NCBI GenBank assembly: GCA_031362565.1
Contig: JANLSU010000014.1
Coordinates: 60,578-124,577 of the forward strand
Length of the DNA: 64,000 nt
Origin: a bacterium
GTDB lineage: Bacteria; Krumholzibacteriota; Krumholzibacteriia; G020349025
Reading direction: 5' to 3'
Below, in pieces: positions 1,259 to 64,000 of this stretch (its first letter is position 1; each line of letters starts with the position of its first letter). A model generated the notes under the pieces. That model saw only the letters and a list, made by a program, of their open reading frames with translations. It searched no databases and was not told the origin of the DNA. The translations under genes and the position numbers were made by a program.

Positions 1259-2968
1259 TCATCCTGCCCGCACTGCGTTCAGCACCGCGCCCAGCAAGTC
1301 CTTGCGGCCGTGGTGGGTGACTTCCTTGGTGCGCCGGTCGCGGATCTCCAGTTTGTCCTCGTTCAAGCCACGCTCACCGATCGTCACCCGGGTCGGAATC
1401 CCGATGAGATCGGCGTCCTTGAACTTGCCTCCGGGCCGCAGGTCGCGATCGTCGAGCAGGGCATCGACTCCGGCCGCCCGCAGCCCGGCGTAGAGGTCCT
1501 CGGCAACGCTGACGCTTTCGGCGTGGGTTCCCGACAAGGGCAGGATCACCACATCGAACGGCGCGATCGAGCGCGGCCAGGTGATGCCGTCCGCGTCGTA
1601 GTGCTGTTCGATCGCCGCCGCCACGGTGCGCGTCACGCCAAGTCCGTAGCAACCCATCACGAACGGTTTTTCCTGGCCGGCCTCGTCCAAGAAGTTGGCG
1701 CCCATGGCCTGGCTGTACTTGAGACCCAACTTGAAGATGTGGCCGACCTCGATGCCGCGCGATGAAACGAGCCCGCCCTTGCAGCGCGGACAGCCGTCGC
1801 CGGCCCGCCCCTGCACGAGATCGCCCCAGGCGGCAACCTGGAAGTCGCGCCCCGCAACGACGCCGCGCAAGTGGGTATCGGTGCGGTTGGCGCCGACCGT
1901 CAAACCCCGGTCGCCGCGCAACGTCGAATCAGCGACGATGCGCACCGAGGCGGGCAACTTCACCGGCCCCGCGAAACCAACGTCGGCGCCGGTCACGGCG
2001 CGCACCTCTTCGGGCAGCAGCGGGCGGAAATTGCCGCTGCCGGCAAGCCGCGCGAATTTGGCTTCGTTCAAGTCGCGATGGCCGGGCAGGAGCGCTGCCA
2101 CGTCCTGGTCATCGACCTTGAAAAGCAACGTCTTGACGAGCGTGTGCGGCGCCACCTGCAAGAAACCCGATACTTCCTCGATGGTGCGTTTGCCGGGCGT
2201 CGCGACCTCTTCGGGCGCCGCCGATCCGGCCGGACGCTCGAGCACTTCCGGCGCGATCTCGGCGCGCTCGGCGTTGGCCGCGTAGCCGCACGAATCGCAC
2301 GACAGGATCTCCGATTCGCCGTTCGCCGCCAACACCATGAACTCGTGGCTCTCACTGCCGCCGATCAAACCGGTGTCGGCCTCGACGCGCCGGAAATCGA
2401 GCCCGCAGCGTTCGAGGATCCGGCCGTAGGCACCGCGCATCGCCTGATATGTGAGATCGAGCGAGGCCTCGTCGGTGTGGAAGCTGTACGCATCCTTCAT
2501 CATGAATTCCCGCGCCCGCATGACGCCGAAGCGCGGCCGGATCTCGTCCCGAAACTTGACCTGGATCTGATACAGCGTCTGCGGCAGCTGCCGGTAACTG
2601 CGCAGCGTGTTGCGCACGAGCGCCGTGACGATTTCCTCGTGCGTCGGTCCGAGAGCGAAATCATGTTCGTGCCGGTCGCGAAAGCGCATGAGTTCCTTGC
2701 CGAAGGCACCCCAACGGCCCGACTCTTCCCATAGATCGGCGGGCTGCAGAACCGGCATGACGATTTCTTGCGAGTCGATGCGGTCCATTTCGTCGCGCAC
2801 GATGCGCGCCACACGCGCCACGGTCCGCGTTCCGAGAGGCAACTGCGTGAACACCCCGGCTGCCACCTTGCGCACCATGCCGGCGCGCATCATGAGCTGG
2901 TGGCTGACGATTTCGGCGTCGGATGGGGTTTCCTTGAGAGTCGGAATGAAGGCCTTCGACCAGCGCAT
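1259..2968 (-). CDS. proS: Proline--tRNA ligase (with INS editing domain)
   Basis: LGPTHEE, FRDEIRPRFGVMRAREF, GIEVGHIFKLG and MGCYGLGVTR motifs. Confidence 0.97.
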   Translation of the reverse strand: MRWSKAFIPTLKETPSDAEIVSHQLMMRAGMVRKVAAGVFTQLPLGTRTVARVARIVRDEMDRIDSQEIVMPVLQPADLWEESGRWGAFGKELMRFRDRHEHDFALGPTHEEIVTALVRNTLRSYRQLPQTLYQIQVKFRDEIRPRFGVMRAREFMMKDAYSFHTDEASLDLTYQAMRGAYGRILERCGLDFRRVEADTGLIGGSESHEFMVLAANGESEILSCDSCGYAANAERAEIAPEVLERPAGSAAPEEVATPGKRTIEEVSGFLQVAPHTLVKTLLFKVDDQDVAALLPGHRDLNEAKFARLAGSGNFRPLLPEEVRAVTGADVGFAGPVKLPASVRIVADSTLRGDRGLTVGANRTDTHLRGVVAGRDFQVAAWGDLVQGRAGDGCPRCKGGLVSSRGIEVGHIFKLGLKYSQAMGANFLDEAGQEKPFVMGCYGLGVTRTVAAAIEQHYDADGITWPRSIAPFDVVILPLSGTHAESVSVAEDLYAGLRAAGVDALLDDRDLRPGGKFKDADLIGIPTRVTIGERGLNEDKLEIRDRRTKEVTHHGRKDLLGAVLNAVRAG

Positions 2969-3064
2969 GCGGTTCCTTTCATTGCCTCGAACAGCTTCGG
3001 AGCGCGCAGCGTACCGCACCGGCGCCGGGCGCTCAATGGCTGCGGCAAAAGGGGTCAGGGGCCT

Positions 3065-4666
3065 CTAAAGTTCGAGCCGGGTGGTCACGAGTACGGCCGG
3101 GGATGTGCGGGAGGGCGCCGTCGCACTGTGGCCAGCGTGCCGGATGGTCAGGGCCCGCACATCGAGCCCGAACTCGATGCTCCGCAGCCCGTGGTAGGCG
3201 ATCGCAATCCCGGGCTGCGACCGGCTTTCGACGACGCCCGACAAGTAACCGACGTTGTCGGATACGCGCTGGTCGTGATCCACCGCGAGCCCACCCTCGC
3301 CGTGGCGTTCTAGTTCATAAAACAAGCGCGCTTCGAAGCCGCGCGACAGCCGGCGGCGGAGTGCCACATCCCACAGATCGCTGTCCGGCCCCGTGCGGCT
3401 GCCGAGCGTGCCACCGAAGTGCTGATAGCGGTCGATCGGATGGACGTGGGTGTAGGTGAACTGGCTCGCCCAACTCCACTCCGCCTCCACGTCCCAGTCG
3501 CCGAGGCCGAAGGGGGCGAGCCATCTCGCCCCGGCCAACACGCCGAGTTTGTTGCCGTAGTTGCGCCACCCACGGCGCAAGTTGAGATCGTCGATGACGC
3601 ACTCGCCATAGAGTTCGCCGCCCGACGCGATGCGCCAGCGCCCGTCGACGCTCGCGAGGGCGTTGTCGAGGTCGCCATTGTTGGCCTGGGTCACGAAGAG
3701 CACCGTCAGGGGATTCACGTACGACAAGTCGAGGCCGCGATTGCCGTAAATCAACGCTTCGGAAACGGCGAGGCGCAGGCGCGGATGCGGCTCGATCTCG
3801 AGCCGGTGCGCGGCGAGATAACGTTCGCGCAATTCCGGGTCGCCGGGCAGGAGGCGCGCGGCGCGCAACTGGCCGGCCAGGCTGGTAAAACGTACCGGCC
3901 CGAGGCGCATCTGCAGGCGCAGCAAGTCGAAGGGCGGGGTTGCGTCCTGCAACAACATCGCGTTCGAACGGCCCGGTCCCCAGCGCAAACGCATCCTTGC
4001 CAGATCGAGCCGCCAACGGCCCGATTCGAAACGCACCCCGGGCTCGACGGTCCGGGTGATTGCGAACCGGTCGCTCGGGTCGAAGACGAACTGCGCTTCA
4101 CCGTCCCGCACATCGGTCGACTGGGCGAGCGATGCATCGCCGGTGCGAACGCGATACGCGACATGCTCGAAGGCCAGCAAGCGGCCGTCGAAGAGCGCCA
4201 GCGCGGCGGCGGGTTCGAGGGTCGTGTGCGCCGTGACATCCCGGTCGGCGCTGCCGCCGTGCTTCTCGAAGCGCTGGCCGCCTTCCCAAAACGCTTGCAG
4301 GCGCCAACCGGTGCCCGTCCAAAGGTGATAGGCCCGGCCGAGCACCGCCGTCGTGTCGCCGGCGGCCGTCAGTTCGGCGGCGAACTCGGCCCGCAGCATA
4401 TCGATCTGTTGGGATTCGATCGGCGTCGGGCGCCAGGCGCCGCGGCGGGCACCGTCGGTGAGGCCCCGGACCATCGTCGCCGCTTCACCGCGGGTGATTG
4501 GCCGCAAATCCAAGAAAGTGCGCGGCACGGCGCCGCGGACTTCGAGCCGTTCCAGAAACTCGTACGACCAGTGTCCGAGTGGTACATCGAGGTGTTCGAA
4601 GGCAAACGCCGGCCGGGCGATCAAGAGCCCCACGACGAGCACCAAAAGCTGTTTCAACCGGAACAT
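3065..4666 (-). CDS. Capsule assembly Wzi-family outer-membrane protein
   Basis: Signal peptide; RWGPG, AHRLE, SEALIYG..YVNP and NNGD.DN motifs. Confidence 0.7.
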   Translation of the reverse strand: MFRLKQLLVLVVGLLIARPAFAFEHLDVPLGHWSYEFLERLEVRGAVPRTFLDLRPITRGEAATMVRGLTDGARRGAWRPTPIESQQIDMLRAEFAAELTAAGDTTAVLGRAYHLWTGTGWRLQAFWEGGQRFEKHGGSADRDVTAHTTLEPAAALALFDGRLLAFEHVAYRVRTGDASLAQSTDVRDGEAQFVFDPSDRFAITRTVEPGVRFESGRWRLDLARMRLRWGPGRSNAMLLQDATPPFDLLRLQMRLGPVRFTSLAGQLRAARLLPGDPELRERYLAAHRLEIEPHPRLRLAVSEALIYGNRGLDLSYVNPLTVLFVTQANNGDLDNALASVDGRWRIASGGELYGECVIDDLNLRRGWRNYGNKLGVLAGARWLAPFGLGDWDVEAEWSWASQFTYTHVHPIDRYQHFGGTLGSRTGPDSDLWDVALRRRLSRGFEARLFYELERHGEGGLAVDHDQRVSDNVGYLSGVVESRSQPGIAIAYHGLRSIEFGLDVRALTIRHAGHSATAPSRTSPAVLVTTRLEL

Positions 4667-4810: not shown

Positions 4811-6799
4811 ATGAACTTCGAACCTGATGAGCCGGAACCCAAAGGCGAAGACGCGGCAGACGGTCCGGCGCTCGAGGCGCCCAGTTCCCCGCTCGTCGAG
4901 AAGGCCCGCCAGTTGCCGGAAGAGCCCGGCGTCTATCTCTTCAAAGATGGCCGCGGCAAGGTGCTCTATGTCGGCAAAGCCAAGGTGCTCCGCGACCGGG
5001 TGCGGAGCTATTTGGGCGCCGCAGCGGATCTCGCACCCAAGACGCGCGTCCTCATGGGACGCGCCCAGGACCTCGACTGGATCGTCACCCGCACCGAAGT
5101 CGACGCGCTCGTCCTCGAATGCAATCTCATCAAGGAATACCGGCCGCGTTACAACATTCGCTTGCGCGATGACAAGAAGTACCCGTACGTCCGCGTCACC
5201 GTCGATGAATTCCCGCGCGTGTTCGCGACCCGCAACATCGTCCACGACGGCAGCGAGTACTTCGGCCCTTATTCCGATGTCGGCGCCATGCGCCGGACGC
5301 TGTCGACCCTACAGCGCGTCCTGCCGACGCGCCCGTGCACTCCCGATACCCTGGACGGCATCGACCGGCCGTGCCTGTACTACGACATTCACATGTGTGG
5401 GGCGCCGTGCGTCGGGTTGCAAAGCCGCGAGGATTACCTGGAGACCGTCGATGGGGTGCGGCTTTTCCTGCGCGGCAAGACCGACGAACTGGCGACGCGG
5501 CTCCGCAAACGCATGGAGGCCTTGGCCGCCGGCCGCCAATACGAGGCCGCGGCACGGGTCCGCGATCAGATTCACGCCATCGATCGCATCACCGATCGCA
5601 TGCGGGCCGTCGTTGGCGAGGGCGTCGAACGCGATGCGGTGGCACTCAGGCGCGATGGGCCGAACGCCTGCGGCGTCATTCTGGCGATTCGCGGCGGCCG
5701 GCTCTTGGCGAGCGAAACGTTCTATTTCTCGGATCGCGACGAAAGCGACATCGAGGTCTTCACCGCCTTCATCGAGCAGTACTACAACGCCACGGTCTCG
5801 GTGCCCGAAGAGATTTTCCTGAGTGCGGAGGTCGAAGACCACGATCTCTTGCAGCGCTGGCTGACCGAGAAGCGTGGTGGGCCGGTGAGCGTGGTCCAGC
5901 CGCAGCGTGGTGAGAAGCGCACGCTGGTCGGTCTGGCGCTCAAGAATGCCACGCTCAAGCTCGACGAACGGCTCATCGCGCAGGGGGTCACATCGAAGCG
6001 GGTGCCGGACGATGTCGTGCAATTGGGCGCCGCACTCGGCATGCGTGAACTGCCGCGCCACATCGAGTGCTTCGATATCTCCAATTTCCAGGGGTCGTCG
6101 CCGGTCGCGTCGCTGGTGCATTTCGAGGCCGGCCAGCCGGCCAAGAAAAACTACAAGCACTTCCGGATCCGCGGCATCGAGGCGCCGAACGATTTCGCGA
6201 TGATGGAACATGTCGTGGAACGGCACTTCCGGGCGCTGCGCGATGGCGCGGCGGCGCTGCCCGAACTCGTCATGGTGGACGGCGGGCGCGGCCAATTGAG
6301 TGCCGCGGAGCGCGCTCTCTCCCGGCTCGGCCTTGCCGACCGCGTCACTCTGATCGGACTCGCCAAGCGCTACGAGGAGATCTACCGGGTGGGCAACCCC
6401 GAACCGCTGCTGTTGGCGCGCACGTCGGCGGCGCTCAAACTCGTCCAGCGGGTGCGCGACGAAGCGCATCGCTTCGCCATTTCCTATCATCGCCGCCTGC
6501 GCGACCGTGAACTCATGCATTCGGCACTCGATGACATCCCCGGGATCGGTGCCAAGACCCGCTTGGCGCTCTTGCGGCACTTTGGTTCGGTAGCGCGCAT
6601 CGCGGTGGCGAGCGCCCAGGACTTGGCGGCGGTGACCGGCGTCGGCGCCATCACCGCCGAGCGCATCTTGAGTGTGCTGTCGCATCCGGCGTTGCGCCCG
6701 GTGCCGGACGGGACGCCGGTGGCGGTGCCGGGTGACGACGACACGAGCGAGGAAATCGTCCTCGACGCCGAGTGGATGGCGCCGGACGGGCCCTCATGA
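4811..6799 (+). CDS. uvrC: Excinuclease ABC subunit C
   Basis: GIY-YIG (PGVYLF..LYVGKA), IECFDISN, DGGRGQ, RDEAHRFA, HhH. Confidence 0.97.
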   Translation: MNFEPDEPEPKGEDAADGPALEAPSSPLVEKARQLPEEPGVYLFKDGRGKVLYVGKAKVLRDRVRSYLGAAADLAPKTRVLMGRAQDLDWIVTRTEVDALVLECNLIKEYRPRYNIRLRDDKKYPYVRVTVDEFPRVFATRNIVHDGSEYFGPYSDVGAMRRTLSTLQRVLPTRPCTPDTLDGIDRPCLYYDIHMCGAPCVGLQSREDYLETVDGVRLFLRGKTDELATRLRKRMEALAAGRQYEAAARVRDQIHAIDRITDRMRAVVGEGVERDAVALRRDGPNACGVILAIRGGRLLASETFYFSDRDESDIEVFTAFIEQYYNATVSVPEEIFLSAEVEDHDLLQRWLTEKRGGPVSVVQPQRGEKRTLVGLALKNATLKLDERLIAQGVTSKRVPDDVVQLGAALGMRELPRHIECFDISNFQGSSPVASLVHFEAGQPAKKNYKHFRIRGIEAPNDFAMMEHVVERHFRALRDGAAALPELVMVDGGRGQLSAAERALSRLGLADRVTLIGLAKRYEEIYRVGNPEPLLLARTSAALKLVQRVRDEAHRFAISYHRRLRDRELMHSALDDIPGIGAKTRLALLRHFGSVARIAVASAQDLAAVTGVGAITAERILSVLSHPALRPVPDGTPVAVPGDDDTSEEIVLDAEWMAPDGPS

Positions 6800-7713
6800 G
6801 CGCCCCCATCGCATCACTCACGCCACTCGCCGCGGCGCGCGAACGCTATCTCGTCCATCTGATGGTCGAACGCGGCCTCGCCCGGCTGACCCTGGACGCC
6901 TACGCCGCCGACCTCGAAGCGTACGGCGCATTCCTGGCCGGGCTCGGCGTCAGCGCCCCGGGTGACGTCGTGGCGACGCACATTCACGAGTACCTGGCGG
7001 CGGCGACCGCCGCCGAACACACCGCTAGCACGCGCGCCCGGCGGCTCTCGACGCTGCGCGGCTTCCATCGCTTTTGTGTGTTGGAGGGCCTCGCTGCCGA
7101 TTCACCGGTCGAGCGCTGGCGGGGTCCGCGCCGCACCCGGCCCTTGCCGCACGTTCTGCGGGTGCATGAAATCGAGCGCCTGGTCGCGGCCCCGGACCCG
7201 TCGACCGCACTCGGACAGCGCGATCGCGCCCTGCTCGAACTGGCCTATGCGGCCGGATTGCGTGCCTCCGAAGCCTGCGACCTGTTGGTGGAGGCTTTCG
7301 ACGCGCGCGCGGCGCTGGTGCGGGTGTTCGGCAAAGGCTCGAAGGAGCGTTTGGTGCCGGTCGGCCGCGCCGCTCTTGCGGCCGTGGCCGCCTATTTGAG
7401 CGACGGGCGGATCCGGCTGACGCGGGGCCGCATTGCGCCGACGCTCTTCCTGAACACCCGCGGCACGCGGCTGTCGCGCATGGGGTTTTGGAAAATCCTG
7501 CAAAAAAACCTGCGCGCCGCCGACATCCGCACGCCGGCGAGCCCGCACACGCTGCGCCACAGCTTTGCAACCCATCTGTTGGAAGGCGGCGCCGATCTGC
7601 GCGTCGTCCAGGAACTGCTCGGGCACGCCGATATCGGCACCACCCAGATCTATACCCAAGTCGATCGCCAGTACCTGACCGAGGTGTACCGGACGTACCA
7701 TCCGCGCGGCTGA
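6796..7713 (+). CDS. xerD: Tyrosine recombinase XerD
   Basis: GLRASE, GKGSKERLVP, SPHTLRHSFATHLLEGGADLRVVQELLGH, TTQIYT, YHPRG end. Confidence 0.9.
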   Translation: MSAPIASLTPLAAARERYLVHLMVERGLARLTLDAYAADLEAYGAFLAGLGVSAPGDVVATHIHEYLAAATAAEHTASTRARRLSTLRGFHRFCVLEGLAADSPVERWRGPRRTRPLPHVLRVHEIERLVAAPDPSTALGQRDRALLELAYAAGLRASEACDLLVEAFDARAALVRVFGKGSKERLVPVGRAALAAVAAYLSDGRIRLTRGRIAPTLFLNTRGTRLSRMGFWKILQKNLRAADIRTPASPHTLRHSFATHLLEGGADLRVVQELLGHADIGTTQIYTQVDRQYLTEVYRTYHPRG

Positions 7714-7822
7714 AGCGGCGCATGGACGGGCGGAAGTTCCGGCCTGTTGTGCTAGGATCGTCCACTTCGAAGCAGAGGCTCACGGCCACGGAGGCGGGGC
7801 CGGGGGAGGGAGGAGACGAAGC

Positions 7823-8827
7823 GTGGCGATCGTTTTGAGCGGCATGCGTCCAACCGGGCGGCTGCACCTGGGGAATTACACCGGCGCACTCGAGTCCTGG
7901 GTCCGCAACCAGGATGTGCATCGCTGTTTCTTCATGGTGGCCGACCTGCATGCGCTGACCACCGACCTCGACACGACGCAAATCGCTTCGCGCACCCGCG
8001 ACATGGTCATCGACTGGCTGGCGGTCGGCCTCGACCCCGACCGCGCCCCGATCTTCGTGCAGTCCCAGGTGCACGAGCACGCCGAACTGCACCTGGTTTT
8101 TTCGATGCTGATCACGCTGGCGCGGTTGCAGCGCAATCCCACCGTCAAGGACCAGGTGCGCGACCTCGGGATCGACGACAACGTGACCTATGGCCATGTG
8201 GGTTATCCGGTGCTGCAAGCCGCCGACATTCTGCTCTACAAAGGCGACTTGGTGCCGGTGGGCGAGGATCAGGCACCGCACGTCGAGATCACGCGCGAGA
8301 TCGCCCGGCGCTTCAACAACGCCTTCCGGCCGGTGTTTCCGGAGCCGCGGGTCGAGCTGACCAAATTTGGCCGCTTCCCGGGCGTCGACGGCCAGCGCAT
8401 GAGCAAGTCGCAGGGCAACACGATTCAGTTGTGCGACTCACCCGAGGAAATTCGGCAGCGCATGCGCCGCGCCGCCATCGATCCGGAGCGGGTGCGGCAG
8501 GACGATCCGGGCCACCCCGAGGCGTGCACCGTCTTTACGTACCACCAACGTTTCAGCCCATCGGACGCGCTGCCGGAAATCGAGCGCGGCTGCCGCGCCG
8601 GGGCGCGGGTCCGCAGTTGCTTGGATTGCAAGATGGAAGCGGCCGACCGCATCGCGGCGCACTTCGCGCCGGCACGTGACAAGCGGCGCGCTCTCGAGAC
8701 GACTCCCGAGCGCGTCGACGAAGTTCTGGAATCGGGGCGCGAGCGCGCGCATCACGTCGCGCAGGCGACGATGATCGAAGTGCGCGACGCCATGGGCCTG
8801 GGCGGCAAGGGGAGGGGGACATCATGA
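7823..8827 (+). CDS. trpS: Tryptophan--tRNA ligase
   Basis: SGMRPTGRLHLGN, YPVLQAADIL, VPVGEDQ, RMSKS. Confidence 0.96.
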   Translation: MAIVLSGMRPTGRLHLGNYTGALESWVRNQDVHRCFFMVADLHALTTDLDTTQIASRTRDMVIDWLAVGLDPDRAPIFVQSQVHEHAELHLVFSMLITLARLQRNPTVKDQVRDLGIDDNVTYGHVGYPVLQAADILLYKGDLVPVGEDQAPHVEITREIARRFNNAFRPVFPEPRVELTKFGRFPGVDGQRMSKSQGNTIQLCDSPEEIRQRMRRAAIDPERVRQDDPGHPEACTVFTYHQRFSPSDALPEIERGCRAGARVRSCLDCKMEAADRIAAHFAPARDKRRALETTPERVDEVLESGRERAHHVAQATMIEVRDAMGLGGKGRGTS

Positions 8828-9576
8828 GTTATGTCGTGCATCTCGAATCGTTCGAGGGTCCGCTGGATTTGTTGTTGTATCTGATCCAGCGCGAAGAAAT
8901 GGACATCTACAACATTCCGATCGCGCGCATCACCGAGCAATATTTGGAGCAGGTGCGGCGTATCGAACGGCTCGAGCTGCAGCCGGCCGGCGAGTTCCTG
9001 GTCATGGCGGCAACACTCATGCGCATCAAGGCGCGCATGCTGCTGCCGCACCAGCGGCCGGGTGAGGAGAAGGAAGAGGATCCGCGGCACGAGCTGGTGC
9101 AGCGCCTGATCGAATACAAGAAGTTCAAAGAAGCGGCCCGCGAACTCGAAGAACGCGAAGACGACCGCAGCCGGCGCTATACCCGGCCGGTCGATGCGTC
9201 GCTCATCGAGGACATGAAGAGTCTCGGCGACGAGATCACCTTCGAAGTGGGACTGCCGCAGATCATGAAGGCGCTGGCCGAAGTGCTGGCGCGCGTCGAC
9301 GAAGTCGTGGCGCACGAAATCCAGCTCGAAGCGGTATCGCTCGAAGACAAGGTCGCCAACCTGCGCACCAAGCTCGCGGCGCGCGGCCGGCTCGCCTGGA
9401 GCGAACTGTTCGAGGACGTGCGCACCCGGCTCGATGTGATCGTCACTTTCATGGCCATGCTGGAACTCGCCAAGGGCGGTGCGCTGCGCTTGCAGCAGGC
9501 CGACAATTTCAGCGAACTTTGGATCTGGAGTCGCGACACCGAAGCGGCGCCGGAAGTTCACCAGGAGGCACGATGA
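8824..9576 (+). CDS. scpA: Segregation/condensation protein A
   Basis: FEGPLDLLLYLI; EFLVMAATLMRIKARMLLP. Confidence 0.95.
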   Translation: MSYVVHLESFEGPLDLLLYLIQREEMDIYNIPIARITEQYLEQVRRIERLELQPAGEFLVMAATLMRIKARMLLPHQRPGEEKEEDPRHELVQRLIEYKKFKEAARELEEREDDRSRRYTRPVDASLIEDMKSLGDEITFEVGLPQIMKALAEVLARVDEVVAHEIQLEAVSLEDKVANLRTKLAARGRLAWSELFEDVRTRLDVIVTFMAMLELAKGGALRLQQADNFSELWIWSRDTEAAPEVHQEAR

Positions 9577-10493
9577 CGCTGTCGACACAAATCGAAGCCT
9601 TGCTGTTCGCCAGCGATCAACCGCTGCCCAAGTCGCGTCTCGGCGAACTCTTGCCGGGTGCGACGCGCGATGAAATACAGGCCGCGCTCGACGAACTCGA
9701 AGCACAGTATGCGGACGGGCCGCGCGCCTTCCGGCTGTTGCGGGTGGGCGGCGGCTTGCAACTCGCCACCAAACCGGAGTTATCCGACATCGTGCGCCGG
9801 TTGTTCACCACCAAGCGGCGCGTGCGCCTGACGAAGGCGGCCCTCGAGTCGCTGGCGATCATCGCCTACAAGCAACCGACGACCCGCCCCGAGATCGACG
9901 CCATCCGCGGCGTCGCGAGCGGCGGCGTGATCGAGACGCTCTTGGAACGCAACTTGGTCCGGCTCGCAGGCCGGGCCGAAGGTGTCGGTCGGCCCTTGTT
10001 GTATGCGACGACGCCGGAGTTCCTGCAGTATTTGGGACTCAATTCAATTGACGACCTGCCGAGTTTGGGCGAACTGGAAGCCATGCTCGCGGAACGTGAA
10101 TCGGCGGCGCGCTTGGCGGACGAGGAAGAAATGCTGGCACTCGAGGATGCGGCGCGCCAGGGCCTCGCCCCCGAAGACGGTGCGGAGACGCCGGCGCCCG
10201 CCGCGCGGCTCGAGGACCGGCTGCGTGAACGCAACCTGCCGACGCTCGAGGAATTGGACAGCGAGCTGCGCGAACGCGCCGACCGGGTTGCCGATCTCTC
10301 GGCGCGCGTCGCTGCCGAACGCCGCCGGCATACGGCCGAACTGGCACCGGCGACACCCGCCGCCGCCGCCGCCGCCGAAGAAGAGAATGAAATTGCGCCG
10401 GCCGCCAGCGAAGGCGCCGCGGTTCTGGACTTCGAGACCGACGCCGGGCGGGCGACCGAAACTCTCGACCCGGCGCGCGAGGGATGCGACTGA
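9573..10493 (+). CDS. scpB: Segregation/condensation protein B with long acidic C-terminal extension
   Basis: IEALLFAS; LESLAIIAYKQP..IRGV; GRPLLYATT. Confidence 0.93.
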   Translation: MTLSTQIEALLFASDQPLPKSRLGELLPGATRDEIQAALDELEAQYADGPRAFRLLRVGGGLQLATKPELSDIVRRLFTTKRRVRLTKAALESLAIIAYKQPTTRPEIDAIRGVASGGVIETLLERNLVRLAGRAEGVGRPLLYATTPEFLQYLGLNSIDDLPSLGELEAMLAERESAARLADEEEMLALEDAARQGLAPEDGAETPAPAARLEDRLRERNLPTLEELDSELRERADRVADLSARVAAERRRHTAELAPATPAAAAAAEEENEIAPAASEGAAVLDFETDAGRATETLDPAREGCD

Positions 10494-59459: not shown

Positions 59460-59487
59460 AGTTTACATAATCCGTCTTATGCGCCAA
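59460..59487 (-). other. dif site (XerC/XerD recombination site), probable provirus att boundary
   Basis: Minus strand TTGGCGCATAA-GACGGA-TTATGTAAACT versus E. coli dif GGTGCGCATAA-TGTATA-TTATGTTAAAT (11-6-11). Confidence 0.88.
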
Positions 59488-59545
59488 ACCAAGAACCGAC
59501 GGGGCGTACTGTAGAAAATCACCCAGCGCGCGTCAACCGAAAAAG

Positions 59546-59576
59546 TCTAACAGGATTCGACCCTCATCCTGTTAGA
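59546..59576. repeat. Perfect 11-bp inverted repeat
   Basis: TCTAACAGGAT-N9-ATCCTGTTAGA. Confidence 0.8.
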
Positions 59577-59667
59577 TCGCGCCCCCTTGTCAGACGCGGC
59601 CCCCAGCCGTGCTAGGATCCGCCCTCACAGCGTTTTCTCTTGGTCTCCACTGCGAGGGAGTCTCTCC

Positions 59668-60072
59668 ATGCGAAAGCTCGTCGCTTCTGTGCTTATCCTG
59701 GCGATCGTCGCCAGTGCCTTCCAAGTCGGACGCGCCGCCGCCGGCAGCCACAAGGGCGCCATGCCGGTCGCGATCGTCTACCCAGGCCCCTTTGTACTCG
59801 ACGACTCAGGGCGATTGTTTCAAAAGAACAACGATGGGTTGGGGTGGACGCAGTTTGCCCAATGCCCGCCCGGCGTGCCAGCGACTATGACCCAGTGGCC
59901 CAGTGACGGGTCCGGATTCAAGTTCTTGGTCGCAATGCAGAATGGTGACGTGTTCATCGGCCCGCACGCGAATCCGACACTCGAGTGGGCGTTTCTAGGG
60001 AACGTATTCAACGATCCAGCGGTCGGAACCTCGAGCAGCACGATCGGCGACTTGAAGCACAGATATCGGTAG
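59668..60072 (+). CDS. Exported hypothetical protein (134 aa), probable provirus cargo
   Basis: GGGAG SD; signal peptide; C-terminus SSTIGDLKHRYR. Confidence 0.75.
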   Translation: MRKLVASVLILAIVASAFQVGRAAAGSHKGAMPVAIVYPGPFVLDDSGRLFQKNNDGLGWTQFAQCPPGVPATMTQWPSDGSGFKFLVAMQNGDVFIGPHANPTLEWAFLGNVFNDPAVGTSSSTIGDLKHRYR

Positions 60073-60073
60073 A

Positions 60074-60814
60074 TCACCAGGAGTGCACGCCGCCCAAACA
60101 GTCGATGAATCCTTGGACCTGGTAGAGCGTCGCGTCGGGCGAAGTGCCCTGAGTGAACTCAACGATGTGAATCGGAACGTCGCCTTCGTAGTGGTAGCCG
60201 ATGAACTTCTGGTAATCCCTGCCCGGCGCTCCGCCGACCGGCAGGTTAACCACCTTCGGCGCTAAAACCCACGTCGTCTGCACGCTGTTCACTCCGGAAA
60301 GATCGACCACGGCAGGACCGACGCCGGCGGTGTCAATCAGCAGGCCGCCGGTCATGGTCCGATACGAGGCGGTGTATTCCTGAGTCGTCATGCCAGCGAT
60401 CTCGCCGGATGCAAGGCCATCGCAGTAAAGCAGATGGTCCGTGGTCTGCACCGACGTCGCGCTTCGGGTGATGATCCGGTCACAGTGACCGACGCGCAGA
60501 ATGTCTACGTACACGTCGACCAGTTTCTTGCTGCCGATAATCATGTCGGACAGGAGAATCCCGAGCGGCGCCATGTAGGAAGCCGAATTCGTGACAACCT
60601 TCGGAATACAGCAACCCTGGCCCATCGGGATGGCGGGGTTGGAGTAGCTTGCAGGCTTCAGGTCGAGGCACACCAGCATTCCCTTGAGGTTGGTGCCGAG
60701 CGAAGCGCCGCCGCCTTCGTCAAGCGTCCATTCGTTGCTCGTCATGTACATACGGCTTACGAGCCGCTCGAATGGGCCTTGCCGGAAGCCGCTGGAAGGA
60801 CCTTCAATGTGCAT
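60074..60814 (-). CDS. Hypothetical beta-rich protein (246 aa), putative spike/receptor-binding protein
   Basis: TAATG coupling with upstream ORF; last gene of structural operon; function inferred from position. Confidence 0.6.
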   Translation of the reverse strand: MHIEGPSSGFRQGPFERLVSRMYMTSNEWTLDEGGGASLGTNLKGMLVCLDLKPASYSNPAIPMGQGCCIPKVVTNSASYMAPLGILLSDMIIGSKKLVDVYVDILRVGHCDRIITRSATSVQTTDHLLYCDGLASGEIAGMTTQEYTASYRTMTGGLLIDTAGVGPAVVDLSGVNSVQTTWVLAPKVVNLPVGGAPGRDYQKFIGYHYEGDVPIHIVEFTQGTSPDATLYQVQGFIDCLGGVHSW

Positions 60815-61239
60815 TAGCTCATCGCCTTGATTGCGACGACCGACAAGATCGCGATCGTGAGGATCGCCGGCCACACAGACGGACCGCCCTCGGCGACGTT
60901 CTTCGCGACCTCGATTACCTTGGCCGTCGACTGCTCGACAGGCCCCGGCACCTGCGTTCGAGGCGAGAGCGCGATCGCGCTCGGGAGGTTCAAGCCGCTG
61001 AACTGACCAGAGAAAGCGACGCGGCCGCGCTTTTTGCCGTTCTGGAGATCGGTCCAGATGCCGTCGATGTCGGGCGTGCGATACTTCGGATTCGGGGTCT
61101 CGCCGGCGCCGTCGAACACGCGGCCATTCGGCAGATTGGCGAGCACGGTGCGGCTCGTCACGACCTGGGTGCGCCGGTCGAGCTCGTCCTTCATCTGATC
61201 GCCCATCACCATCGCCAGGCGTAGACTTGCCGTGCTCAT
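60814..61239 (-). CDS. Hypothetical protein with C-terminal TM anchor (141 aa)
   Basis: WPAILTIAILSVVAIK; ATGA coupling. Confidence 0.7.
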   Translation of the reverse strand: MSTASLRLAMVMGDQMKDELDRRTQVVTSRTVLANLPNGRVFDGAGETPNPKYRTPDIDGIWTDLQNGKKRGRVAFSGQFSGLNLPSAIALSPRTQVPGPVEQSTAKVIEVAKNVAEGGPSVWPAILTIAILSVVAIKAMS

Positions 61240-61391
61240 TGTTTCGCTGCCTCCCGCGACTTCCGGAAGTGATAACCGCCCAAGCCCGCCGTCGCGCCGA
61301 TGTAGATTCCAAGTGCAATACCATCGATGCCGCAGTGCAGCGCGTACGCTTCGATCCCCGTAAGAGCCACAATCGCGAGAACGGTCTTCAT
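61236..61391 (-). CDS. Small membrane protein (51 aa), possibly holin-like
   Basis: MKTVLAIVALTGIEAYALHCGIDGIALGIYIGATAGLGGYHFRK...; ATGA overlaps on both sides. Confidence 0.68.
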   Translation of the reverse strand: MKTVLAIVALTGIEAYALHCGIDGIALGIYIGATAGLGGYHFRKSREAAKQ

Positions 61392-61534
61392 TCGCCCCTC
61401 GCGATCAGAGCCAATGCACCGATGGTGTTCAGGACCGCGAACGTCAGAGCCACGCCACGCAGCACGCCGTGCGTCTTCCACGCGATCACGCCGGCGACGC
61501 CGGCGATTGCCAGGCTGCGGGTTGAAATCTTCAT
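61388..61534 (-). CDS. Small membrane protein (48 aa; not in ORF track)
   Basis: MKISTRSLAIAGVAGVIAWKTHGVLRGVALTFAVLNTIGALALIARGE; ATGA overlaps on both sides. Confidence 0.68.
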   Translation of the reverse strand: MKISTRSLAIAGVAGVIAWKTHGVLRGVALTFAVLNTIGALALIARGE

Positions 61535-61881
61535 GCGTGAACCGCCTTCGCGAGCATTCCAGTGAGAACGGCAGTCGAGCTGCCGACCAGGATGACGGCC
61601 TTCCAGCCGCCGTAGACGTGGTAGTGGCGCGCGGTGCCCTTCTCATGCAGCTCGACCGTATAGCCGAGAGCCGTCAGCACGTCGCGCTTTGCCTGCGATG
61701 TCTCGATGCCCATATCGACAGCGCCGCCGACCAAGTGCAGCGACGTCGGCGACGCGGACGTGGTCGCCTTGTTCTGGGCGGGAGTCCGCTTCCAGTCGGT
61801 CACGCGAATGTGCAGCAGGTCAGCCAGCGCGCGCAGCATGTGCCCGCCGATGACGTATTGCGTGCGGTCGCCTTCGATCAT
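61531..61881 (-). CDS. Peptidase M15-like zinc peptidoglycan hydrolase with hydrophobic C-terminal tail
   Basis: R-T-x-x-Q-N, SLHLVGGAVD (SxHxxGxAxD) and HYH. Confidence 0.75.
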   Translation of the reverse strand: MIEGDRTQYVIGGHMLRALADLLHIRVTDWKRTPAQNKATTSASPTSLHLVGGAVDMGIETSQAKRDVLTALGYTVELHEKGTARHYHVYGGWKAVILVGSSTAVLTGMLAKAVHA

Positions 61882-61894
61882 GGCGGGTCTCGCC

Positions 61895-62242
61895 TCAGTG
61901 CTTCAGAACTGCGAACGCGCCCACCAGAATGGCGGCAGCGAATAGAATCGTGATCAGCGAAATCACGTCGGAGGCGTTCTCGACGGTTTTCTTGGCCGTG
62001 GCACCGCCGTTGTAGACGGCGCCGGCCAACGTCGGCGACGTGCTGAACGCGATGTCGATCGCTTTCTTTGGGTCGCTCCTGATGAACGCGACCGCGTCCT
62101 TCACTTCGTCCCAGTACGAATGCCCGACGCTCGTGCCGGTTGCCTGGTCGAGCGCTTTGCCGCCGCGCAGCGCGGCCGCGTGCGTCGAGGTTGCGCCGGG
62201 CAGATCCTTGATCGAGGTGACGAAGTCGAACTTGGTGCTCAC
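61895..62242 (-). CDS. Hypothetical protein with C-terminal TM anchor (115 aa)
   Basis: VISLITILFAAAILVGAFAVLK; GTGA coupling. Confidence 0.7.
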   Translation of the reverse strand: MSTKFDFVTSIKDLPGATSTHAAALRGGKALDQATGTSVGHSYWDEVKDAVAFIRSDPKKAIDIAFSTSPTLAGAVYNGGATAKKTVENASDVISLITILFAAAILVGAFAVLKH

Positions 62243-62397
62243 TTGCGCCTCCGGGCGACGAGCCAGATCACGACGATCGCGAGCCCGATGCCGGCGACGA
62301 GCTTCATGTTCACGCCACCCGGCAGCTTGAGCGTGTTCTTCTGCGTGGATCGGGCGTTGTCGTCCGCCTCTGCCACCAAGGCCTCGAGCGAGTTCAT
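62239..62397 (-). CDS. Small protein with C-terminal TM and basic tail (52 aa)
   Basis: LVAGIGLAIVVIWLVARRRK; ATGA coupling. Confidence 0.7.
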   Translation of the reverse strand: MNSLEALVAEADDNARSTQKNTLKLPGGVNMKLVAGIGLAIVVIWLVARRRK

Positions 62398-62696
62398 TGC
62401 TTGCGCGTCATCAGGTAGACGGCTGTGAGCCCGCCACCGACGCCGAGAATCCACTTCCACGGCGGCCCGGTTGCGGTGGCCGGCGACTTCGAAGCATCGA
62501 GAACCCGCTGCGCATCCATCTGCGCCGCCTGGTTCGCTTCCTGCGGTGTCGCGGTGCCGCCTGCGACAGACTTGACAGCGTTCGAAGCCGCATTCACGGC
62601 ACCAACGACGATGTTGCCGCCCGGCACTGTGGCCTTGACGATATTGCCGATCGCCTTGCCGATTTTCAGTTTCTTGATTTTCGAGAAGAAGCCCAC
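62394..62696 (-). CDS. Putative virion membrane protein (100 aa): amphipathic basic N-terminus, C-terminal TM
   Basis: MGFFSKIKKLKIGKAIGNIVK...WKWILGVGGGLTAVYLMTRK; GGGAG SD before GTG. Confidence 0.72.
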   Translation of the reverse strand: MGFFSKIKKLKIGKAIGNIVKATVPGGNIVVGAVNAASNAVKSVAGGTATPQEANQAAQMDAQRVLDASKSPATATGPPWKWILGVGGGLTAVYLMTRKQ

Positions 62697-62721
62697 GACC
62701 GTCTCCCTGGGTGGAAGGACT

Positions 62722-62749
62722 GGCGGCGCGCCGCTATGGACGCGCCGCC
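62722..62749. promoter_or_regulatory. GC-rich hairpin directly downstream of the putative capsid gene
   Basis: GGCGGCGCG-N10-CGCGCCGCC, no U-tract. Confidence 0.55.
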
Positions 62750-62765
62750 GTCCCCACCTGTTCGA

Positions 62766-63722
62766 TCACGCGGCCGCTAACTGCTGCAGCGTGAAGACCT
62801 CTTCGATCTTGCCGGCACGGAGCTTCCGCGCGACCTTGGCCTTCACGACTTCGCCGGACGCCTGCACCGTACGGTCGCGCTTCTTCGAATCGAAGACCGC
62901 GGACAGGATCAGGTGACGCACCACGACGGCGCCGGTCGCGGTCGTCGTAATGACGACGTCGTCCGACAGGACTTCCGTGATCTCGCCCAGGCGCGCGAGC
63001 TTCGTCTCGAAGCAACGCACGTAGCTGCCTTCGATGCGGTTGTCCCAGTTGCTCATCGATTGCAGAACGCCGACCTGGATCGAACTGGATTCCTGGCCGT
63101 CCTTCTTGATCGCGAGCTCCGTGAAGTTGGCGGACGGAGTGATCAGCAGACTTTTGGCGGTACCGTTGTTCACGCCCCAGCCGCGATCGGTGTAGATCGC
63201 GACCACGTTGTCCTGCGGGACGACGCGCCGGTCCTTCGATGCGGCCGAGAAGTCCTGATTGAGCTGAATCATGTACAGCGAGTAATTTTCCTCGCCGGCG
63301 TCGACGGTGACGCCGTACAGCTCGACCAGCGCGCCGGCCACGACCGATGCCGTGAAATTCGGCCCGAATTGCAGCGTGATCTGTGCGCGGTCGGTCGTCT
63401 CGACGGCTTCGACGGTTCCATCGCCATAGCCGCGCGGTATGAAGACCGACATCGCGAATGGAAGGTTGATTGCGGTGTCGCCCGTGCACTCGACCTCGCC
63501 GCCGATCTTTTCGTTCATGAAATGAATCATGTCGAAGTCGGCGTCTACGATCACTTGCGAGCCGTGACGGTAGAACACGTGACCGACCTCGCCGATCGCG
63601 AGGAACTGGGCGGCGGCCTGCGTTCCCGAAATGCGAAGCAGGAAGTAGTCGTAGGTCTCGGGATCGATGTCCGCTTGGAACACTGCACCCGTCGCCGTTT
63701 TGGATGCGAGCAGCTTGCGCAT
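62766..63722 (-). CDS. Putative double-jelly-roll major capsid protein (318 aa)
   Basis: Size; two beta-rich halves; C-terminal basic helix; no signal peptide or TM; recalled resemblance to FLiP-type MCP; flanked by small TM genes. Confidence 0.62.
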   Translation of the reverse strand: MRKLLASKTATGAVFQADIDPETYDYFLLRISGTQAAAQFLAIGEVGHVFYRHGSQVIVDADFDMIHFMNEKIGGEVECTGDTAINLPFAMSVFIPRGYGDGTVEAVETTDRAQITLQFGPNFTASVVAGALVELYGVTVDAGEENYSLYMIQLNQDFSAASKDRRVVPQDNVVAIYTDRGWGVNNGTAKSLLITPSANFTELAIKKDGQESSSIQVGVLQSMSNWDNRIEGSYVRCFETKLARLGEITEVLSDDVVITTTATGAVVVRHLILSAVFDSKKRDRTVQASGEVVKAKVARKLRAGKIEEVFTLQQLAAA

Positions 63723-63726
63723 GGTG

Positions 63727-63834
63727 TTACGCCACCACCGCGGGGAACTTCTTCGACAGCTTGGCCGTCACGATCCCGGCCACAACGCCGGCGAAGACGG
63801 TCACTGCGAAGAAGATGATCTTCTCCTTGGACAT
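63727..63834 (-). CDS. Tiny single-TM protein (35 aa; not in ORF track)
   Basis: MSKEKIIFFAVTVFAGVVAGIVTAKLSKKFPAVVA; AGGAGG SD; ends 4 nt before capsid-like gene. Confidence 0.72.
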   Translation of the reverse strand: MSKEKIIFFAVTVFAGVVAGIVTAKLSKKFPAVVA

Positions 63835-63854
63835 TTTTCGATTCCCTCCTACAC

Positions 63855-63889
63855 AAAAAAACCGGGTCGCCCTGTTACAGGCGCCCGGT
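63855..63889 (-). terminator. Intrinsic terminator-like hairpin plus U-tract immediately upstream of the structural operon
   Basis: Minus strand ACCGGGCGCCTGTAACAGGGCGACCCGG followed by TTTTTTT. Confidence 0.65.
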
Positions 63890-64000
63890 CCGGGTTCGAA
63901 GAGAAGTCGAACACGGTCAGGGGGGGCACTCCTAGAAGTTTCCCCCTATGTCAGGGTTTAGACCCCCTCTTTACGAACTTCCCGGCACGCCCGTGGGTCG

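Follow-up and report, generated by a model that had tools for sequence, protein, structure and literature searches.

What kind of element lies between the chromosomal dif site and the end of the assembled sequence in an uncultured bacterium of the Eisenbacteria (metagenome-assembled genome GCA_031362565.1; Krumholzibacteriota in the GTDB lineage)? The stretch of DNA analysed, referred to below as the window, comprises 64,000 nucleotides of contig JANLSU010000014.1 (G000:C70:60578-124577), and its base 64000 coincides with the end of this contig, C70. A preliminary description had proposed that a provirus was integrated at dif here, and that it belonged to a FLiP-like, possibly single-stranded DNA (ssDNA), tailless membrane virus. 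We consider it probable that positions 59488–64000 are one end of a dif prophage, comprising a structural and lysis operon and a cargo gene, and that this prophage is an integrative mobile element exploiting Xer (IMEX) and belongs to a small tailless icosahedral virus with a double jelly-roll (DJR) capsid of the PM2-like (Vinavirales) type.

The DJR fold that had been suggested for the 318-residue (aa) product of the second gene of the block was borne out by structure prediction. An exhaustive HMMER search with this protein yielded 107 matches at E ≤ 0.001 among 50%-identity cluster representatives, nearly all of them 290–330 aa long and aligned end to end. An alignment of 81 family members was used to generate an AlphaFold2 model (pLDDT 92.5, pTM 0.90), which consists of two β-sandwiches and a C-terminal helix; in each sandwich, a helix follows the fifth or sixth strand. 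Two upright jelly-roll barrels are thereby present within one capsid chain, and comparison of the model with known structures using Foldseek and VIA-align returned almost exclusively DJR capsid proteins, with scores of 23.1 for STIV, about 21 for PRD1/PR772 P3, 19.9 for FLiP, 18.3 for PM2 P2, 17.5 for PhiCjT23 and 17.3 for PBCV-1. Of 208 genomes of the phylum, 1 contains the capsid gene, whether the search is made with the single protein or the family profile; the gene is therefore accessory, not part of a core conserved in relatives, a possibility for which the preliminary description had allowed.

The dif site that had been placed at the left boundary of the block is present as the 28-mer AGTTTACATAA-TCCGTC-TTATGCGCCAA at positions 59460–59487. 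Because this motif is single-copy in the genome and, with one or two mismatches, in four of the six other genomes of the family, and because a reversed control pattern gave no matches, we identify the site as the chromosomal dif. Its left 11 bases we take to be the XerD arm and its right 11 bases the XerC arm, by comparison with the dif site of E. coli. The same assignment is obtained from the Vibrio dif consensus quoted in PMC12715192.

A fuzzy search of both strands of the whole 5.4-Mb assembly returned one further site within 7 substitutions of the dif 28-mer. The second attachment (att) site, AGTTTACCGCG-TCCGTC-TTATGCGCCAA, lies on contig C9, 1,364 bases from one end of that contig. The preliminary description had recommended searching for such a site in the sequence beyond position 64000, of which there is none on C70; one was nevertheless located, on C9. 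It agrees with dif in 17 of 17 bases across the central hexamer and XerC arm and differs from it by four mismatches, at the innermost four positions of the XerD arm; the 17-mer TCCGTCTTATGCGCCAA is present exactly twice in the genome. The two sites are in direct orientation, and the one on C9 is oriented as expected if a prophage sits between them. Four ORFs (open reading frames), co-oriented with the operon in the window, occupy the 1.36 kb from the C9 site to the end of that contig, and a PD40 β-propeller gene lies on the outer side of the site.

Relatives had also been proposed for comparison as a source of an empty dif, and the dif flanks of two of them correspond to the outer flanks of the element. 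In G002, HtrA and heparinase II/III-like genes on one side of dif match the left flank in the window, and in G006, the genes at the XerC-arm side of dif match C9 17470–18660 in the predicted orientation. Taken together, the synteny of the outer flanks and the two att sites point to one element spread over two contigs. Octamers that are strand-skewed on the left arm (12:0 to 15:1) occur on the outer part of C9 solely in reverse orientation, at small counts (7 occurrences), and the GC skew around dif was weak and, on C9, inconsistent. The neighbourhood of dif is variable among the relatives: the flanks in G003 (L010) are quite different, and in G002 (L011 3061-6000) 2.9 kb of other genes separate the heparinase-like gene from dif. 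Such variability fits a plastic terminus region.

The host encodes both XerC and XerD, a feature that belongs to the definition of an IMEX: two recombinases scored 328.1 and 257.9 bits with the XerD model and 291.1 and 276.3 bits with the XerC model, both just under or under the curated cut-offs. (The two Xer-type genes are on the same contig as dif, at window positions 6841–7707 (+; C70:67418-68284) and at C70:54195-55046 (+), 52 kb and 65 kb from it.) No recombinase was detected with Pfam or PHROGs in the 15 ORFs of the element that were seen, outside which about 5 kb would lie. From the architecture of the sites and the lack of an integrase in the parts seen, we infer that integration depends on Xer. 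The attP site on the circular genome would consist of a degenerate XerD arm joined to a central hexamer and XerC arm copied from the host dif (17 bases), and host XerC and XerD would recombine this site with dif. The left junction (59460–59487) would regenerate a working dif, leading to chromosome dimer resolution being kept, and the right junction on C9 would be a hybrid, XerD-defective site, a poor Xer substrate that should stabilise the prophage.

All ten co-oriented minus-strand ORFs of the preliminary description are present between 63834 and 60074, encoding proteins of 35, 318, 100, 52, 115, 116, 48, 51, 141 and 246 aa in transcription order, and six of their nine junctions overlap by 1 or 4 bases (ATGA, GTGA or TAATG), as had been stated. 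An addition to that description is a plus-strand gene between dif and the minus-strand block, encoding a secreted 134-aa protein. The G+C content at third codon positions (GC3) is 0.67–0.92 and that at second positions (GC2) 0.36–0.55 in all ORFs, as in host genes. No ORF matched any Pfam family at E ≤ 0.01, and PHROGs gave two weak matches only, an endolysin (E 0.0021) for the 116-aa protein and a holin (E 0.014) for the 35-aa protein. In agreement with the earlier reading, no tail, portal, terminase or integrase family was matched in either collection in the parts seen.

Most of the small proteins had been described as having transmembrane (TM) segments, C-terminal ones in the 100-, 52- and 115-aa proteins, and a 19-residue hydrophobic window is present in seven of the eight; the Gly-rich hydrophobic tail at the C-terminus of the 100-aa protein fell under the threshold. 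The N-terminus of the latter resembles that of a 93-aa protein encoded in a related locus, L003 (E 0.001 over 43 aa). The suggestion of an M15 peptidase for the 116-aa protein found some support in its match to PHROG 894 (endolysin), but none in Pfam at E ≤ 0.1 or among PDB sequences at E ≤ 5; we take its sequences SLHLVGGAVD and HYH to be an SxHxxGxAxD/HxH-like M15 motif. For the 246-aa protein, one homolog was found (P0113, 45% identity), and its nearest Atlas clusters are viral hypothetical proteins; from the position of its gene, it is a candidate for a vertex or spike protein. Running from the 35-aa to the 246-aa gene, the operon most likely encodes the capsid and internal-membrane proteins, together with a putative wall-degrading enzyme and, possibly, a vertex protein. 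The virion itself probably contains an internal membrane, given the many small membrane proteins and the PM2-like order of the genes. A hairpin upstream of the 35-aa gene was detected by folding and missed by a consensus terminator scan. Features of the window, of contig C9 and of L003 are listed in Table 1.

Table 1. Features of the element in the window and on contig C9, and of the related locus L003 (L003 features in order along the direction of the capsid gene)
Feature	Position	Strand	Remarks
Window
Chromosomal dif / left prophage junction	59460..59487	+	XerD arm AGTTTACATAA (intact), centre TCCGTC, XerC arm TTATGCGCCAA
134-aa secreted cargo protein	59668..60072	+	signal-peptide-like N-terminus; end ...LKHRYR; convergent with structural operon, beside att site
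246-aa soluble β-rich protein	60074..60814	-	last gene of operon
141-aa protein, C-terminal TM segment	60814..61239	-	no Pfam or PHROG family
51-aa membrane protein	61236..61391	-	
48-aa membrane protein	61388..61534	-	
116-aa putative LAS/M15-type peptidoglycan peptidase	61531..61881	-	hydrophobic C-terminus; weak call
115-aa protein, C-terminal TM segment	61895..62242	-	
52-aa membrane protein	62239..62397	-	ATG start; 73-aa GTG form also open
100-aa protein, C-terminal hydrophobic tail	62394..62696	-	position and size as PM2 P3 (104 aa)
318-aa DJR capsid protein	62766..63722	-	
35-aa single-pass membrane protein	63727..63834	-	directly before capsid gene; L003 equivalent 33 aa, PM2 P7 34 aa
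Terminator-like hairpin and seven-U run	63855..63894	-	upstream of structural operon; -23.2 kcal/mol, z -2.64 (folding)
Contig C9 (L001, G000:C9)
112-aa Cys-rich protein	6700-7038		adjoins C9 att site
Secreted protein, ~176 aa	6998-7552	+	C-terminus ...VTWSRVRGLYR
58-67-aa protein	between att site and contig end		
76-aa membrane protein	between att site and contig end		
Locus L003
Homolog of window 134-aa protein	2645-3121	-	E 2e-11; beside L003 attP
Half-dif site	3231-3258		reverse complement GGTTGCCCTTG-TCCTTC-TTCTGCGCCAA
Secreted 240-aa protein	3318-4040	+	end ...WGAVKALWR
574-aa Rep_1 rolling-circle initiator			Pfam 3e-21
Small proteins with paired CxxC (Zn-ribbon-like)	6653-8121 and 9566-9712		no family match
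P-loop ATPase	8566-9561		PHROG 2666 'head and packaging' 3.6e-20; PDB: HerA chains 1e-5, STIV B204 packaging ATPase 2.5e-4
33-aa membrane protein, then capsid gene			
93-aa protein, C-terminal TM segment			3' of capsid gene
193-aa membrane protein			after 93-aa protein
SLT lytic transglycosylase			5e-16; last listed gene

L003, a metagenome contig of 13.4 kb, encodes a capsid protein with 39% identity to that of the window, and was the single related locus returned by a metagenome scan. Its half-dif site is identical over 17 of 17 bases to the core and XerC arm of the dif sites in relatives G002 and G003, and is flanked by the same two kinds of gene that would border attP in the excised circle of the window element. 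The window element and L003 each mimic dif with one arm only, over 17 bases, their XerD arm being degenerate, and no recombinase was found among the 19 ORFs of L003 that were scanned. L003 has the appearance of a sister virus, from a sister genus, in its unintegrated (or a circularly permuted) form. The contig (CXWL01...) is absent from the main text of Yutin et al., the supplements of which may list it.

The Rep protein of L003 also gave a weaker match to REP_ORF2-G2P (4.2e-5), under the cut-off, and the gene for the FtsK/HerA-type ATPase lies two small genes upstream of the capsid gene. The ATPase ORF continues for ~120 low-complexity residues past the domain, overlapping a more protein-like 113-aa ORF in another frame (9209–9550); this extension may be a frameshift in the contig, which contains ambiguous bases, or an overprinted gene. 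The Cys-rich small proteins (the CxxC set of L003 and the 112-aa protein on C9) are candidate regulators or recombination accessory factors.

PM2 itself (Corticoviridae, Vinavirales) is described as having a DJR capsid and a genome of about 10 kb (PMC1950889, PMC5894146). Its gene order, which runs from Rep P12 through the P9 ATPase, P7 (34 aa), the P2 capsid protein and P3 (104 aa, with a C-terminal TM segment) to further membrane proteins and the spike, is the order found in L003. The packaging ATPase is reported to be a conserved feature of the PM2 group that the FLiP group lacks (Yutin et al. 2018); L003 has the capsid and ATPase genes together, the middle of the window element being unassembled. 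Pfam domain P2_C matches 6 of the 81 members of the capsid family (best 2.5e-5) and P2_N 2 of the 81 (1.2e-5), and the nearest Atlas clusters of the family carry P2_C/P2_N domains as well. The window capsid protein itself has no Pfam match, and the profile of the family (A1) matched no PDB sequence at E ≤ 1. Differences from PM2 were also seen: there is no significant sequence or profile similarity to P2, and the capsid protein has 318 rather than 269 aa. Like PM2, L003 has a rolling-circle Rep; none was found in the part of the window element that was seen. In addition, PM2 is lytic, and the PM2-like prophages analysed in 2007 are reported to have used integrases or transposases.

We considered the possibility that the element is instead a prophage of an ssDNA membrane virus like FLiP or PhiCjT23 (Finnlakeviridae-like) at dif, which would encode a Rep of the rolling-circle type but lack a packaging ATPase. 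The DJR capsid, the small membrane proteins and the dif site, on which the preliminary description had based its FLiP-like assignment, all stand. We nevertheless regard the ssDNA alternative as unlikely, because the closest locus, L003, encodes an FtsK/HerA-type ATPase, because the gene order is that of PM2, because PM2 coat-protein domains are found in some members of the capsid family, and because contigs holding family members are repeatedly 10.5–13.4 kb in size, larger than the 6.0–8.4 kb reported for PhiCjT23-like prophages. PM2 also has a rolling-circle Rep (per annotation), and profile similarity to the FLiP/PhiCjT23 capsids was not significant. By extension from this one relative, the genome of the window element is probably double-stranded (ds) DNA, packaged by an ATPase.

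Several observations weigh against a PM2-like prophage at dif. Structural comparison of the capsid model places FLiP slightly above PM2, and alignment of the capsid profile with that of PM2 P2 using hhalign was not significant (E 0.041, probability 1.3%) and no better than that with the FLiP capsid (E 0.02 over 104 columns, not significant). The AlphaFold2 model of the 246-aa protein from a two-sequence alignment was unusable (pLDDT 30.6), and the call of the putative M15 peptidase is weak. Contigs C70 and C9 were joined by inference, with no k-mer overlap between their ends or with any other contig, and no Logan contig spans dif with >30 bases on both sides. L003 is the sole related locus obtained with gene context, further scans of public collections having found none. 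Finally, the middle of the element is not assembled, and the 133 contigs yielded neither a Rep_1 domain nor any relative of the Rep or ATPase of L003.

The part of the element that was seen amounts to 5.9 kb (15 ORFs, 11 in the window and 4 on C9), and by analogy with L003 the missing middle would be about 5 kb and would most likely hold a rolling-circle Rep, regulators and an FtsK/HerA packaging ATPase. A tblastn search of the genome with 17 L003 proteins gave matches only in the capsid gene and in the N-terminal part of the 100-aa gene. Logan contigs of run X1 likewise end at 63996. A C-terminal likeness (GKFV) between the ORF that enters at the window end and the L003 ATPase ORF was rejected, its score of 21 comparing with a mean of 18.6 and a maximum of 30 for shuffled sequences.

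These gaps bear on a second alternative, that of a defective remnant or a domesticated structural cassette at dif that has no replication or packaging genes and makes no virions. Such a cassette would account for the lack of a packaging ATPase, which L003 has, and of a Rep in the 5.9 kb seen and elsewhere in the bin, and for the Logan contig depth on the element (4.1–6.7), which is not above that of the chromosome (7.2–11.2) and gives no sign of induction. However, the reading frames of all 11 window genes and of the 4 C9 genes are open and show a coding-type GC3, the two att sites are intact, and the element is missing from 207 other genomes of the phylum, which argues against long domestication. 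Since the gap falls at contig ends, at ~4x depth, where the Logan contigs stop too, poor assembly is the simpler reason for it, and a remnant appears improbable. We regard it as very improbable indeed that a free viral genome with a dif-like attP was misjoined to the chromosomal contig during assembly or binning: Logan unitigs do break exactly at 59460–59489, with none bridging by >30 bases on both sides, and the element terminates both contigs, but in Logan record 3 an intact XerD arm of the chromosomal type continues into 828 bases of the element, the C9 junction links element genes to a flank syntenic with the dif flank of a relative, and there are two different hybrid sites, as integration predicts, where a free circle has one.

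In run X1, the unitigs break on the dif 30-mer, with depths of 11.2 and 7.2 on the chromosome and the lower values given above on the element. This pattern could reflect a mixture of lysogenic and non-lysogenic cells; as similar k-1 breaks occur inside the element and the depth is low, no conclusion was drawn from it.

The preliminary description had thought the combination of such a virus with Xer and dif to be undescribed. DJR prophages that use Xer/dif are, however, already published: 57 PhiCjT23-like prophages of Flavobacterium, 6.0–8.4 kb in size and flanked by 28-nt dif motifs, were reported in 2022 (PMC9719478), and NO16-like, dif-type DJR prophages of Vibrio between 2023 and 2025 (PMC9966536, PMC11630473, PMC12715192). 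The Vibrio prophages are described as 12.9 ± 1.0 kb IMEXs in dif, without an integrase, whose attP is either a full 28-bp or a one-armed (left or right) 17-bp dif mimic, one junction regenerating dif (PMC12715192). The window element resembles them in its 17-base one-armed mimic and in the intact dif at one junction. It differs from them in its host, which belongs to the Eisenbacteria and not to the Pseudomonadota, in its capsid protein, which shows no similarity to anything in 50,697 isolate phage records by tblastn, in that no RstR/XafT-like lysogeny module was recognised in the parts seen, and in that its att site is flanked by secreted proteins, one with a full host-type C-terminal tag and one with a looser version. 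Pfam likewise detected no XafT-like factor (DUF3653) in these parts.

The TLC-phi, VGJ-phi and CTX-phi elements of Vibrio cholerae reportedly also use host XerCD at dif, the TLC-type attP being said to lack a proper XerD arm and to have a central region identical to that of dif. The attP sites of the window element and L003 are like this TLC-phi class in both respects; unlike our element, those of V. cholerae are filamentous phages or satellites. No account of a comparable virus or prophage from Eisenbacteria emerged from a full-text literature search on prophages of that phylum. What is new here is the host phylum and a capsid family that is absent from the isolate-phage collection searched.

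That collection was searched with the window capsid protein and with P0005, P0048 and P0012. Nor did tblastn find a capsid match in plasmids. Scans of viral contigs with the window capsid protein, P0009, P0019 and family alignments A3, A5 and A6 yielded nothing, with none in IMG/VR, and the same was true of scans of genome contigs with A3 and A5. A word-index search with alignment A1 returned 3 proteins only. No annotation of the capsid family was found, the clusters looked up carrying no names.

Both genes nearest attP in the window element encode secreted proteins. The one on C9 (...VTWSRVRGLYR) is among 48 of the 28,871 stop-to-stop ORFs of ≥100 aa in the genome that end in W-x2-[VILFM]-[KR]-x-[LMF]-[YWF]-R, and the end of the 134-aa protein is a looser match to this tag; the L003 counterparts end in ...WGAVKALWR and ...WTRFKRGFR. 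A host paralog of the 134-aa protein is encoded at G000:C122:27608-27991 (-), with 37% identity over 135 aa. No other gene of the element was found near this paralog by tblastn, and the 134-aa protein was not found in the dif flanks of the relatives. Tagged cargo beside an att site recalls the hypervariable cargo regions described for the Vibrio IMEXs (PMC12715192).

Taken further, these observations suggest a wider picture that we put forward tentatively, judging its chances to be slightly less than even. The half-dif attP would be tuned to each host genus, the capsid would represent an unclassified, family-level lineage of PM2-like membrane viruses (10.5–13.4 kb) infecting Eisenbacteria and perhaps other uncultured bacteria of the FCB group, and the tagged cargo on both sides of attP would amount to lysogenic conversion via host-specific sorting.

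At the present locus, a virus is connected with a host from a candidate phylum that has no cultured members, and the connection is made by an integration junction and not by prediction; if the reading is true, this would be the first virus tied to the phylum by its integration site. The capsid family provides a handle on about a hundred unannotated metagenomic relatives. For viruses like these, hosts could be assigned from pairs of half-dif attP and host dif, as exemplified by the window element and its host and by L003 and the dif of genus g2. The as yet undescribed C-terminal sorting signal could be studied on the tagged secreted cargo. With this element, the DJR prophages that borrow dif extend beyond Vibrio and Flavobacterium into a third, distant lineage, suggesting that borrowing dif is a general strategy of small tailless viruses.

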